From a virus (taxonomy: Duplodnaviria > Heunggongvirae > Uroviricota > Caudoviricetes), in IMG/VR virus record IMGVR_UViG_2693429508_000011: a stretch of DNA of 4,835 nucleotides; one strand, written 5' to 3'. Below, in pieces: positions 1 through 4,835 of the stretch (the first letter of the stretch is position 1; every line of letters starts with the position of its first letter). A program made the position numbers and the translations under genes. Below the pieces are notes generated by a model that was not told where the DNA came from, did no database searches, and saw nothing but the letters and a program-made list of their open reading frames with translations.

Positions 1-30
1 ACACTAAATCAGTAAGTTGGCAGCATCACC
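1..30 (-). mobile_element. IS1 terminal fragment: left inverted-repeat end of an IS1 copy that extends leftwards out of the window
   Basis: Positions 1-30 (acactaaatcagtaagttggcagcatcacc) are the exact reverse complement of the recalled IS1 left end GGTGATGCTGCCAACTTACTGATTTAGTGT. The element is therefore in minus orientation and its boundary is at position 30. Confidence 0.85.
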
Positions 31-137
31 GAAGTGGTAAAGAAGATAATAAAGAATAATATTTAGGGTTATAGGTCTTAGCCCATTTTAAATGGAAGGC
101 AGACATGCAGCCATGCATACTTCGCATGGCAACATAA

Positions 138-566
138 TTATTTAGACAAACTATCTAATTTTTGCGTCGCTTTTTGTGTTAGGTCGCTGTAACTGATAAA
201 CCCTACGTTAGCACCTACAATTAACACTAAGAACACTAAGCTGCATATGGATAGAGTGGCAGATTTATGCTTATGGAAAACAAAATATGCTACTATTGCA
301 CTTAATATGAAGGAAATGAATAGAAATATAGATGTTGATGTTTTTAGATATTTTTCAGGAAATAATGGGTGAGCAATAATGTATACAAGATTAAGTAGTA
401 TATAAATTGCTACCGGAATGAAAATCATGCTCCAGTGTGTATCTTTTTTGGGAGGGATTGGCTGCAAATAATCAGACACCGTTTTTCCATCAGTTTCAAG
501 AAGAATTACTAGATCTCTTACTTCACCACTGACTTGAGTGCCATCCTTAGTAGTAATGTTAATCAT
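138..566 (-). CDS. Hypothetical small membrane protein, 142 aa: about 45-aa N-terminal soluble domain followed by three predicted transmembrane helices
   Basis: ORF 138..623 trimmed to the internal ATG at 564-566, which is preceded by a strong Shine-Dalgarno GGAGGG with a 5-nt spacer (minus strand reads tttGGAGGGaaaaaATG). Three hydrophobic stretches (IFIPVAIYILLNLVYIIAHPLF, IFLFISFILSAIVAYFVF, LSICSLVFLVLIVGANVGFI). Its ATG overlaps the upstream gene's TGA as ATGA. AT-rich, unlike the neighbouring phage genes. No family recognised. Confidence 0.6.
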   Translation of the reverse strand: MINITTKDGTQVSGEVRDLVILLETDGKTVSDYLQPIPPKKDTHWSMIFIPVAIYILLNLVYIIAHPLFPEKYLKTSTSIFLFISFILSAIVAYFVFHKHKSATLSICSLVFLVLIVGANVGFISYSDLTQKATQKLDSLSK

Positions 567-940
567 TTTTTCCCTCCAAATACGATGCCCTCTACGTCTT
601 TGGAAGCTTTTTGTGATGACCACTCCTCTGAATCAGGTGATTTAATTAAAAATATTGTATCTCCATCAAAAATCGTATTTGTTCCGTAAAAATTCACATT
701 TGATAGATCACCACCAAAAACCCTCTGCCCACTCGAGGTAATTGCCTCACCTAATTTAGTAAAATTACCAGCAATAGATGATTTTCTTTTTCCACTTCTA
801 TTCAAAGTGGCTTTAATTACACCACCACCATCCTTAGAGTTAAATAATTGAATGTCCACTCCAGCAGTTGGTTGTATATATTTTGAAAGCTCTTTCTTGA
901 ACTTGTTAATATATTTATCTTTGTTTTCTTTGTTGGTCAT
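563..940 (-). CDS. Hypothetical soluble protein, 125 aa, Gly/Ser/Lys-rich; first gene of a two-gene operon
   Basis: Uninterrupted 125-codon ORF in AT-rich DNA with a single Met start at 940. Its stop (TGA, 563-565) overlaps the start of the downstream membrane-protein gene. Upstream Shine-Dalgarno is weak (GGAT). No recognisable family from sequence alone. Confidence 0.5.
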   Translation of the reverse strand: MTNKENKDKYINKFKKELSKYIQPTAGVDIQLFNSKDGGGVIKATLNRSGKRKSSIAGNFTKLGEAITSSGQRVFGGDLSNVNFYGTNTIFDGDTIFLIKSPDSEEWSSQKASKDVEGIVFGGKK

Positions 941-1027
941 TGGTTAGATCCATAGTTCTGGCTGTGATTAGGTGAAAGTATACAAGGTTTTTAAAGCGAA
1001 GATCACTGTTTTGGCTTCAAGATAGTT

Positions 1028-1056
1028 TTGATTTATCGTAATCAATCCGCCATAAT
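1028..1056 (+). promoter_or_regulatory. Candidate sigma70 promoter upstream of the nin operon (-35 TTGATT, 17-bp spacer, -10 CATAAT)
   Basis: TTGATT at 1028-1033, 17-bp spacer, CATAAT at 1051-1056, about 150 bp upstream of the ybcN start and oriented towards it. Hexamer match only, no experimental support. Confidence 0.3.
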
Positions 1057-1204
1057 CCTCTCATCGGAGCCTGAACAACTCCGGTGACTTCTGCGCATTT
1101 AAGGGGACTTAAATGCGACCACAATCTGAACTCATCACCTTGTCACAGATGCAGAAATGCACCTGCGATTTTCTGCATTCTGCGGTTTCCGTTAGGGAGG
1201 CCGT

Positions 1205-1660
1205 ATGACTCTGCCAGTAGACGGCATCAAACTCCATCGCGGTAACTTCGCGGCCATCGGCCAGCAGATTCAGCCATTGCTGGATGCCGGGCAATGCTTA
1301 CGCCTGCAGGTTAAGCCGTGGCGCGAGAAGCGCAGCCTGTCGCAGAACGCGCTCAGCCACATGTGGTACACGGAGATCAGCGAATATCTCATCGCCCGCG
1401 GCAAGACCTTCGCTACGCCTGAGTGGGTCAAAGACGCGATGAAGCACACCTATCTCGGCTACGAAAGCAAAGACCGTGTAGATGTCGTGTCCGGCGAGGT
1501 CACCACCGTCCAATCCCTCCGCCATACGTCAGAGCTGGAAACCGGCGAGATGTACATCTTCCTGTGCAAAGTCGAAGCCTGGGCGATGAATATCGGCTGC
1601 CACCTGACAATTCCGCAGAGCTGTGAATACCAGCAGCTGCGCGATAAGCAGGAGGCGTAA
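1205..1660 (+). CDS. ybcN: NinB/YbcN-family phage protein (nin region recombination / DNA-binding protein), 151 aa
   Basis: 151-aa ORF with Shine-Dalgarno GGGAGG 5 nt upstream of the ATG. Length and position (first gene of a ninE-ybcO-rusA cluster) match DLP12 ybcN as recalled. Sequence identity is recalled, not searched. Confidence 0.8.
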   Translation: MTLPVDGIKLHRGNFAAIGQQIQPLLDAGQCLRLQVKPWREKRSLSQNALSHMWYTEISEYLIARGKTFATPEWVKDAMKHTYLGYESKDRVDVVSGEVTTVQSLRHTSELETGEMYIFLCKVEAWAMNIGCHLTIPQSCEYQQLRDKQEA

Positions 1661-1830
1661 TGGCTACACCGCTTATTCGTGTCATGAACGGGCACATCTA
1701 CAGAGTATCAAATCGTCGTAAGCGTAAGCCTGAGCTGAAGCCATCCGAAATACCAACACTGCTCGGATATACCGCTAGCCTGGTTGATAAAAAATGGTTG
1801 CGACTGGCAGCAAGGAGGAATCATGGCTGA
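1660..1830 (+). CDS. ninE: NinE-family small phage protein, 56 aa
   Basis: Hand-translated ORF missing from the supplied track (below its size cutoff): [56 protein letters not shown]. Its start overlaps the ybcN stop (TAATG). The basic RKRKP motif and 56-aa length fit NinE. Confidence 0.75.
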   Translation: MATPLIRVMNGHIYRVSNRRKRKPELKPSEIPTLLGYTASLVDKKWLRLAARRNHG

Positions 1831-2113
1831 TTTGAGAAAAGCAGCGCGTGGTCGGGAATGCCAGGTAAGAATCCCTGGCGTATGTAATGGCAATCCTGAA
1901 ACGTCAGTACTGGCACATATCCGGCTGGCTGGATTGTGCGGTACCGGTATCAAACCGCCAGACCTGATTGCCACCATTGCATGTTCTGCCTGTCACGACG
2001 AAATCGACCGCCGCACATATTTTGTCGATGCTGAGTATGCAAAAGAATGCGCGCTGGAAGGTATGGCGAGAACGCAGGTTATCTGGCTGAAAGAGGGGGT
2101 TATTAAGGCGTGA
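1823..2113 (+). CDS. ybcO: YbcO-family (DUF1364-like) putative phage nuclease, 96 aa, Cys-rich
   Basis: ORF 1784..2113 trimmed to the ATG at 1823, which is preceded by AGGAGG (1812-1817). Begins [14 protein letters not shown]; 96 aa matches DLP12 YbcO. Overlaps the ninE 3' end by 8 nt. Confidence 0.8.
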
Positions 2114-2472
2114 ATACCTACAGCATCACATTACCCTGGCCTCCGAGCAATAACCGCTATTACCGCCATAATCGCGGGCGCACACACATCAGCGCAGAAG
2201 GGCAGGCATACCGCGATAACGTCACCCGAATCATTAAAAACGCAATGCTGGATATCGGCCTGGCTATGCCAGTGAAAATCCGTATTGAGTGCCACATGCC
2301 GGATCGCCGTCGCCGTGACCTGGATAATCTGCAAAAAGCCGCTTTTGACGCACTCACCAAAGCAGGTTTCTGGCTGGATGATGCTCAGGTCGTTGATTAC
2401 CGCGTTGTGAAGATGCCTGTTACCAAAGGTGGGAGGCTGGAACTGACCATCACCGAAATGGGGAATGAATGA
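2110..2472 (+). CDS. rusA: RusA Holliday-junction resolvase (endodeoxyribonuclease RusA), 120 aa
   Basis: 120-aa ORF beginning [24 protein letters not shown], recognised as RusA. GTG start at 2110 overlaps the ybcO stop (GTGA). Confidence 0.9.
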
Positions 2473-2609
2473 TGTTTGAGTTTTATATGGCAGAACTTCT
2501 TCGCCACCGCTGGGGGCATCTGCGCTTATATCGTTTCCCCGGTTCTGTTTTGACCGATTACCGAATACTGAAGAATTACGCCAAAACCCTGACAGGAGCA
2601 GGAGTATGA
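2469..2609 (+). CDS. ylcG: YlcG-family small phage protein, 46 aa
   Basis: Hand-translated ORF: [46 protein letters not shown]. Its ATG overlaps the rusA stop; size and position match DLP12 ylcG. Confidence 0.65.
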
Positions 2610-2694
2610 AGTCAGAGATAACAATCAACTAATACTGTTTTGTTGATTTTTGCTTGTAATTGGCGTTCTGGTCTGATTTTTGTGGAGTAAGTTG

Positions 2695-3078
2695 ATGCGT
2701 GATATTCAGATGGTTCTTGAGCGTTGGGGAGCGTGGGCGGCTAATAATCATGAAGATGTGACCTGGTCGTCCATTGCCGCCGGTTTTAAGGGATTAATTA
2801 CTTCAAAAGTAAAATCTCGCCCGCAATGTTGTGACGATGACGCGATGATTATTTGCGGGTGCATGGCCCGTCTGAAAAAGAACAACAGCGATTTGCACGA
2901 TTTATTAGTAGATTATTATGTAGTCGGTATGACATTCATGTCACTGGCAGGTAAGCATTGCTGCTCTGATGGTTATATCGGGAAAAGGTTACAGAAGGCT
3001 GAGGGCATAATTGAAGGGATGTTAATGGCATTAGATATCCGGTTAGAGATGGATATCGTTGTTAATAACTCTAATTAA
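2695..3078 (+). CDS. quuD: Phage late-gene antiterminator Q (phage 82 / DLP12 QuuD type), 127 aa
   Basis: ORF 2680..3078 trimmed to the ATG at 2695, preceded by GGAG (2684-2687) with a 7-nt spacer. The Cys-rich 127-aa product ([24 protein letters not shown]...) and its position after rusA-ylcG match the phage-82-type Q of DLP12. Confidence 0.8.
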
Positions 3079-3102
3079 TATGCCAATTGTTTACTAAAAA
3101 TT

Positions 3103-3128
3103 ATTAAAAATGGGGCGTTGCAACGCCC
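3103..3128 (-). terminator. Candidate rho-independent terminator for the minus-strand porin transcript
   Basis: Perfect 18-bp palindrome GGGGCGTTGCAACGCCCC (3111-3128), followed on the minus strand by a T-rich tract (ATTTTTAATAATTTTTAG), about 140 bp downstream of the porin stop. Confidence 0.4.
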
Positions 3129-3216
3129 CCAAAAATAAAGGGTAATATATAACAGAAGGTTTATATAGTTAGAAGCAAGGTTGTGCTCCTAAAGGAAGTG
3201 GCTTGAGGGAGCCACT

Positions 3217-3257
3217 TATATGTTGGGGAGGCAAAGCCTCCCGCAACATATCTTTTA
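3217..3257 (+). terminator. Candidate tR'-like intrinsic terminator downstream of Q
   Basis: Long imperfect hairpin (atatgttggggaggc / aaa / gcctcccgcaacatat, one bulged G) followed by CTTTTAG on the plus strand. Position is analogous to lambda tR' after the late promoter. A second 8-bp hairpin lies just upstream (3195-3216). Confidence 0.35.
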
Positions 3258-3266
3258 GTAATCAAA

Positions 3267-4349
3267 TTAGAACTGGTAAACCATACCTACAGCAACGATA
3301 TCATCGGTAGCAACGCCAGATGCTTTCGTGAAATCGCTCTTATCAATCAGGTTGATTTTGTAATCAACAAAAGTGGACATATTTTTGTTGAAGTAATAGG
3401 TTGCACCTACATCAATATATTCAACCAGGTCCTGATCACCCCACGCACCCAAGTCTTTTCCTTTAGATTGCAGGTAAGCAACGGACGGACGCAGACCGAA
3501 GTCGAACTGATATTGTGCAACTACTTCGAAGTTTTGTGCTTTGTTGGCAATATGGTTATTACCAAAAACAGTCATGTTCTGGGTTTCAGAATAGGTGGTA
3601 GCCAGATAGATGTTGTTCGCATCATATTTCAGACCAGCTGCCCATACTTCAGCATTTTGACCAGATGCATTCAGGCTGTTGTTACCGTAGATAACCTGAT
3701 TATTAGTGCGGTCAGATTTAGCATAGGTTGCACCTACACCGAATCCTTCATACTCATAAGTAGTGGAGAAACCGAAACCATCACCATTAGCTTCAGTTAC
3801 GTCAGTGCGGTCATTTTTACCCTGATACTGAGCAGCAAAGTTCAGACCATCAACCAGACCAAAGAAGTCGTTGTTACGATAAGTTGCAACACCAGTGGTG
3901 CGACCAGTCATGAACACATCTGTTTGAGTCCAAGTGTCACCACCGAATTCTGGCAGGACGTCAGTCCACGCACCGATGTCGTATGCTACACCGTAGTTAC
4001 GGCCGTAATCGATGGAGCCGTAGTCACCGAATTTCAGGCCAGCGAAGGCAAGACGGGTTTTATCTTTGGAGGAACCTTGAGATTCAGCGCGGTTGCCTTT
4101 GAATTCATATTCCCACTGACCGAAACCAGTCAGTTGATCGTTGATTTGGGTTTCACCTTTGAAGCCAAGACGGGCATAAGTAGTATCACCATCATCTGCA
4201 TCATTAGAGGAGAAGTAGTGCTTAGCATTAACTTTCCCGTACAGATCCAGCTTGTTACTGTCTTTATTATAAATTTCAGCTGCCTGAGCAGACATCGCCA
4301 TCAGTACTGATGCAGCTACAGCAGAAATTGCCACTGTTAATTTTTTCAT
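3267..4349 (-). CDS. nmpC: Outer-membrane general porin, OmpC/OmpF/PhoE family (prophage converting porin, NmpC/Lc-like), 360-aa precursor
   Basis: ORF 3267..4409 trimmed to the ATG at 4347-4349 ([23 protein letters not shown] signal peptide, AAGGG Shine-Dalgarno upstream). Mature N-terminus [17 protein letters not shown]...LGFKGETQ...[12 protein letters not shown] closely resembles OmpC. C-terminus ...VGMVYQF ends in the Phe typical of beta-barrel porins. Location after Q on the opposite strand matches DLP12 nmpC. Confidence 0.9.
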
Positions 4350-4456
4350 CGTGAGCCCTTTTTTTGAACTATTATTAAAAAATGATGTCACTGCGCGATA
4401 AATATTCATCTAATCAATGTGATTATTTCAAGATGTAAGTTTTGGTTTCTCGTTTG

Positions 4457-4782
4457 NNNNNNNNNNNNNNNNNNNNNNNNNNNNNNNNNNNNNNNNNNNN
4501 NNNNNNNNNNNNNNNNNNNNNNNNNNNNNNNNNNNNNNNNNNNNNNNNNNNNNNNNNNNNNNNNNNNNNNNNNNNNNNNNNNNNNNNNNNNNNNNNNNNN
4601 NNNNNNNNNNNNNNNNNNNNNNNNNNNNNNNNNNNNNNNNNNNNNNNNNNNNNNNNNNNNNNNNNNNNNNNNNNNNNNNNNNNNNNNNNNNNNNNNNNNN
4701 NNNNNNNNNNNNNNNNNNNNNNNNNNNNNNNNNNNNNNNNNNNNNNNNNNNNNNNNNNNNNNNNNNNNNNNNNNNNNNNNNN
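4457..4782. other. Run of 326 N (assembly gap or masked sequence); content unknown
   Basis: Continuous n characters. The two ORFs in the track spanning it (4419..4796 and 4423..4818) are artefacts of translating N. Confidence 0.95.
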
Positions 4783-4804
4783 GTTTACGTACGTAAAAAA
4801 TTGG

Positions 4805-4835
4805 GGTAATGACTCCAACTTATTGATAGTGTTTT
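4805..4835 (-). mobile_element. IS1 terminal fragment: right inverted-repeat end of an IS1 copy that extends rightwards out of the window
   Basis: Positions 4805-4835 (ggtaatgactccaacttattgatagtgtttt) are the exact reverse complement of the recalled IS1 right end AAAACACTATCAATAAGTTGGAGTCATTACC. Same minus orientation as the IS1 end at 1-30. Confidence 0.85.

Follow-up and report, generated by a model that had tools for sequence, protein, structure and literature searches.

The window, as we call the whole 4,835-nt stretch of DNA that was analysed, covers part of a DLP12-like lambdoid prophage, in which the genes ybcN, ninE, ybcO, rusA, ylcG and quuD (Q family, PF06530) are followed by an nmpC/lc-type porin gene on the opposite strand (Table 1). 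The porin gene is intact, and its protein has an identical copy in 17,488 blocks of the collection searched. In intact relatives, the DNA to the right of the porin gene consists of a non-coding spacer of ∼587 bp and then the lysis genes essD (holin), rrrD and rzpD. In the window, this region is readable up to a single run of Ns, and resumes for a short native segment that abuts the end of an IS1 element. Reading the sequence and counting by script both gave exactly 326 Ns, so the gap described in an earlier, sequence-only reading of the window is as it was reported, and so are the ∼107 bp of readable DNA upstream of the porin gene (whose start is at 4349) and the 22 bp that separate the gap from IS1.

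Table 1. Features of the porin/lysis control region and its surroundings, in window coordinates.
Feature	Position	Strand	Remarks
IS1, second copy, IRL end (last 30 nt)	1-30	minus	same orientation as the right-hand copy; L005 matches from base 1 through the junction
nmpC/lc-type prophage porin, intact	3267-4349	minus	360 aa, MKKLTVAIS...; Pfam Porin_1/Porin_4
Readable half of the divergent control region	4350-4456		107 bases upstream of the porin start codon
Sigma-E-like motif	GAACTA 4366-4371, N16, TCACT 4388-4392	plus	just upstream of the start at ∼4397; 8/12 consensus matches, counted by hand
Candidate porin core promoter	TTGAAA 4426-4431, N18, GAATAT 4402-4407; start ∼4394	minus	weak; hexamers read by hand
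OmpR-box-like sequence CTTACATCTTGAAATAATCA	4420-4439	minus	motif match only, 14/20
N run	4457-4782	none	data gap or mask; by homology, the 261-nt porin-essD intergenic stretch
Native prophage bases GTTTACGTACGTAAAAAATTGG	4783-4804		22 nt between the gap and IS1
IS1 target AAAATTGG	4797-4804		8 nt, the last 8 of the 22 native bases
IS1 IRR end (first 31 nt), GGTAATGACTCCAACTTATTGATAGTGTTTT	4805-4835	minus (transposase reading)	L011 has the full 768-bp IS1 at this junction

The sequence-only reading held that nothing could be inferred about the masked bases. This proved too cautious, because two relatives that carry the same IS1 junction share an identical sequence at this place. We searched for exact copies of the right-hand junction (native DNA joined to IS1), which returned two IMG/VR contigs, and a look-up of the porin protein led to the complete genome CP049179.1 (L011), which has the same junction. 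The IMG/VR contig L005 is 99.955% identical to the window over positions 1-4456 and 100% identical over 4783-4835, both IS1 junctions included; the two sequences differ at only two positions, 541 and 4391. In both L005 and L011, the interval between ...GGTTTCTCGTTTG and GTTTACGTACG... is filled by the same 261 nt, which are non-coding and have a GC content of 29.5%. Read from these relatives, the hidden stretch would begin with ATTTGTGAAGTAGATCTCTAT and end with ...ATCATTTAGTG.

The same stretch was found in 2398 of the 5426 complete E. coli genomes and is present in 36 phage records. The copy in the DLP12 prophage of K-12 MG1655 differs from that of L005 and L011 at few positions, and the copy in phage PA-2 is 94.6% identical to it. 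The readable flanks (4350-4456 and 4783-4804) are themselves identical or nearly so to K-12, EcN and PA-2, and the 22 native bases on the right are contiguous with the spacer in all relatives compared. A further contig, L006 (IMGVR_UViG_2630968682_000002), has the same IS1 junction and ends 120 nt into the stretch that is hidden in the window; this end could be a cut at the provirus boundary, or a second assembly may have broken in this AT-rich place.

Why, then, does the window hold 326 Ns, 65 more than the 261 nt expected from its relatives? Across 127 relatives, the length of the stretch varies only from 259 to 264 nt, and it is exactly 261 nt in 118 of them. With the exact flanks used as anchors, 114 IMG/VR contigs have 246-276 nt between the flanks and none has 311-341 nt; no metagenome contig has 311-341 nt between the flanks either. 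When 40 E. coli records were sampled evenly down the ranking, 39 matched across the region, at identities from 99% to 76%, and in all 39 the subject span was within ∼6 nt of the query span, with no allele of ∼326 nt among them. Since 326 matches none of the lengths found in the relatives, the N count is probably an estimate of gap size and not a true length. The most likely origin of the Ns, we infer, is a scaffold gap of estimated length, or possibly a mask that did not keep the length; a counterpoint to the scaffold gap is that the right-hand readable piece, at only 53 nt, is short for a scaffolded contig. We put at about 0.85 the probability that the N run is a data hole, not a biological feature, and that it hides the ordinary AT-rich, non-coding middle (∼261 nt) of the porin/lysis control region.

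Three other accounts of the gap were weighed against this one. The first, which we regard as unlikely but deserving of some weight, is that a multi-copy repeat was collapsed in short-read assembly. Both ends of the window lie within IS1, 30-31 nt from its edge; de Bruijn contigs stop in this way at repeats, and such ends would be expected if the window were an entire short-read contig that broke where a repeat had collapsed. Moreover, the porin gene and its upstream region occur at several sites per genome (median 2, up to 14). The 261-nt stretch itself, however, is single-copy in nearly every E. coli genome in which it occurs (median 1, maximum 2). For E. coli at least, this gives no support to a repeat-induced break, a cause that the sequence-only reading had proposed to check through repeat content.

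The second account takes the Ns base for base: the strain would carry 326 nt, composed of the 261 nt and a 65-nt insertion, duplication or small mobile element, or else a different allele altogether. The count is indeed 326, with flanks that meet the two ends of the 261-nt stretch exactly, and some sequence collections do contain deliberately masked stretches; yet no such length occurs in the 127 loci, in the scans of IMG/VR and metagenome contigs or in the sampled E. coli records that match, and both L005 and L011, with the very same IS1 insertion, have 261 nt. We therefore hold this account to be quite improbable; if it were true, the porin/lysis control region would contain ∼65 extra nucleotides seen in no relative examined.

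The third, that the gap hides the lysis genes or the point where they meet IS1, was suggested by the sequence-only reading from the prophage gene order. In the lambdoid order Q - porin - S R Rz, the lysis genes do come next to the right, but we give this account almost no credence: the right flank consists of spacer sequence, found in the relatives 198-219 bp before essD, the IS1 junction itself is readable at 4804/4805, 326 nt is too short to hold both the remaining spacer and the 216-bp essD, and essD-rrrD-rzpD stands intact on the far side of IS1 in L011.

The preferred reading, a data hole over ordinary spacer, agrees with what the relatives contain on either side of this point. An intact relative has its essD start codon 198 bp past the IS1 insertion point, and L005 and L011 both have the holin gene beyond IS1. 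Within the 261-nt stretch, we found no open reading frame conserved across alleles, an Rfam search of the intact relative returned nothing significant, and a tRNA scan found no tRNA. Several candidates within the stretch were considered and set aside. A hydrophobic 35-aa reading frame present in some alleles has a TTG start, has no clear ribosome-binding site and is interrupted by stop codons in other alleles. A structured leader RNA is not supported by the predicted fold, which is not significant (z = -1.4), and an apparent covariation in a hairpin (CCAGC/GCTGG) is inconsistent across alleles. Closure of the gap onto a short, featureless spacer was the outcome that the sequence-only reading had set against itself; judged by homology, the hidden DNA is indeed short and non-coding, but it is not featureless.

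The features are those of a control region lying between an nmpC/lc-type porin gene and essD, downstream of a Q-family gene, with the holin side known from L005 and L011. On the porin side, two CAP/CRP sites upstream of lc are annotated in the record of PA-2 (J02580.1). The 21 bases with which the hidden stretch begins coincide exactly with site 1 (ATTTGTGAAGTAGATCTCTAT), which agrees with the CRP core in 8 of 10 positions; site 2 (AGTGGTTACTTCGTCACACAG) is found beyond the IS1 insertion point, at 14-34 nt from it. According to the supplement of PMC5438342, nmpC is repressed by OmpR in K-12 and is a previously characterized OmpR target, which the ChIP-exo data confirm with a peak at 576106-576166 in U00096.2; the supplement also names CRP and IHF as further regulators of nmpC. 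The OmpR peak given in that supplement maps to ∼4407-4467 of the window, straddling the edge of the gap. In addition, the nmpC(-)/essD(+) region (576129_354 in U00096.2) is one of 78 promoter islands that are bound by H-NS in all data sets (PMC3661553; Panyukov and Ozoline 2013). Counted from the porin start codon, this K-12 island extends from +81 to +434 and the hidden stretch from +108 to +368, so that the hidden stretch falls wholly inside the island. The placement of the island uses an offset between K-12 genome versions that we take to be 777 nt. Carried over from K-12 and PA-2, the assignments of CRP, OmpR, IHF and H-NS would apply to the window as well, and the hidden stretch would then supply the porin gene with upstream regulatory DNA, the CRP site occupying its first 21 nt.

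The position of the porin promoter itself is less direct. Sigma-70 consensus scans, of the intact spacer and of the readable flank, gave 0 sites where shuffled sequences gave more, and thus no strong promoter. The OmpR table of PMC5438342 gives a "distance to TSS" of 43, and because the sign of this value is ambiguous, two porin starts are possible, at ∼4394 or at ∼4480. We prefer the start at ∼4394, 45 nt upstream of the start codon: it fits the arrangement TTGAAA-N18-GAATAT, it puts CRP site 1 at approximately -72.5 or -73.5, near the standard class I spacing, and it puts the OmpR box over the -35 element. The alternative start, 131 nt upstream of the start codon, would lie ∼24 nt inside the gap, where plausible hexamers were not seen. 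The core promoter of the porin gene is thus probably contained in the readable 107 bp. The suspicion that regulator sites lie in the gap is borne out by CRP site 1, by the OmpR peak at the gap edge and by the H-NS island, while the part of the suspicion that concerns the core promoter probably does not hold.

On the lysis side, the essD regulatory region was cloned from -121 to +650 in PMC7918800, which cites Rueggeberg et al. 2015. The forward primer given in PMC7918800 matches the window from position 4276, which would place the +1 of essDp near 4397, just downstream of the sigma-E-like motif of Table 1; the same paper lists RpoE and the Q antiterminator among the regulators of the operon, and a study that it cites is reported to have found essDp dependent on both. 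From this start, the hidden stretch would correspond to approximately +60 to +320 of an untranslated leader of ∼540 nt preceding essD-rrrD-rzpD, and IS1 sits near +342 of the leader. A single terminator-like hairpin, AAACCCGCCGTCGAGCGGGTTT with a T run after it, is present in the relatives, 33-64 nt past the IS1 point. A perfect TATAAT in the hidden stretch (the h124-133 region) was considered as a late promoter and rejected, as it has no -35 element and reads TGTAAT or TATGAT in many alleles. One of the two positions at which the window differs from L005, position 4391, falls within the -10-like TCACT of the sigma-E-type essD promoter: the window and K-12 have C at this position, and L005 and L011 have T.

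The window also records an event in the history of this control region. The terminal inverted repeats of IS1 are present at its two ends (GGTAATGACTCC... for IRR and GGTGATGCTGCC... for IRL) and match the ends of the 768-bp IS1 in L011. A second AAAATTGG follows the element on its other side in L011, and the two form an 8-bp direct duplication, as in a simple insertion; the window stops inside the right-hand IS1, and the far side is known from the relatives only. In this lineage, then, IS1 would have entered at a point 22 bp beyond the right end of the hidden stretch and duplicated the 8 bp of AAAATTGG. As a consequence of its position, IS1 would separate the porin gene from CRP site 2, and it would also come between essDp with its leader on one side and the intrinsic terminator and lysis genes downstream on the other. 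Two direct copies of IS1, each cut ∼30 nt in, bracket the prophage fragment from ybcN to the porin gene.

The insertion at exactly this site was found in one complete GenBank genome of 4.88 Mb (CP049179.1) and in two isolate-derived contigs of IMG/VR. None of the 5426 complete RefSeq E. coli genomes has the IS1 junction; the right-hand junction sequence was not found in genome contigs or metagenome contigs, nor the left-hand junction in genome contigs. Our guess is that the carrier is an IS1-rich lineage such as Shigella.

It is instructive to compare this region with systems that have already been described. The nmpC-essD region of DLP12 in K-12 MG1655 (NC_000913.3, ∼576826-577397) has the same gene order (ybcN, ninE, ybcO, rusA, ylcG, quuD, porin, essD), identical readable flanks and a stretch of equal length that is nearly identical to the inferred hidden one; the reports of an H-NS-bound promoter island, of an OmpR target and of essDp all concern this K-12 region itself. 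Two differences stand out: nmpC is broken by IS5 in K-12, whereas the porin gene in the window is intact, and the window has IS1 in the spacer, 198 bp before essD, with the middle of the spacer unreadable. The lc upstream region of PA-2 (J02580.1) shares the two annotated CAP/CRP sites along with its 94.6% identity over the 261 nt, but PA-2 is a functional phage without IS1, and its CAP sites are a sequence-based annotation of the original record. The likeness to a simple IS1 insertion lies in the IRR and IRL ends and, in L011, in the 768-bp element and the 8-bp duplication; of the right-hand element, the window itself holds 31 nt. Finally, the lysis side resembles a lambda-type late leader (pR' - short RNA - tR' - S): its promoter is far from the holin gene, on the upstream side, the leader that follows is long and untranslated, an intrinsic terminator precedes the holin gene, and a Q-family gene (PF06530) is nearby. 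Unlike the lambda-type leader, it has a porin gene between Q and essDp, and RpoE is also listed as a regulator in PMC7918800.

These comparisons, which rest on homology, lead us to conclude with good confidence that the hidden DNA would be the control region already described in K-12 DLP12 and in phage PA-2, and that it is ordinary. The gap should accordingly not be taken as concealing genes or anything unusual, and near-identical relatives can supply the missing sequence. For the annotation of the window, the porin gene should be recorded as intact, with its gene-proximal control region readable and its core promoter probably located there, and IS1 as having cut the lysis operon and one CRP site off the shared control region.

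Three further observations concern the rest of the window. The other difference from L005, at position 541, is an extra C in the window, inside a low-GC region with two hypothetical minus-strand reading frames (138-623 and 563-940); the extra C extends a mechanically called reading frame from 113 to 161 aa. On the minus strand between 3096 and 3266, ∼170 nt run from the porin stop codon to a terminator (GGGGCGTTGCAACGCCCC and a T run, 3112-3129), and this segment is predicted to fold into five hairpins (-63.2 kcal/mol, z = -8.35). An Rfam search of the window gave no family matching this segment, and nothing significant. IpeX is a 167-nt sRNA of DLP12 that is made within the porin transcript (PMC12197685), and the position and size of the structured segment would fit IpeX. 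On the plus strand between 3079 and 3266, just downstream of quuD, -10-like repeats and a long hairpin (ATATGTTGGGGAGGC...GCCTCCCGCAACATAT) followed by CTTTT can be read by eye; these elements could be a classical Q-dependent pR'/tR' pair located before the porin gene, as opposed to the essDp of the literature.
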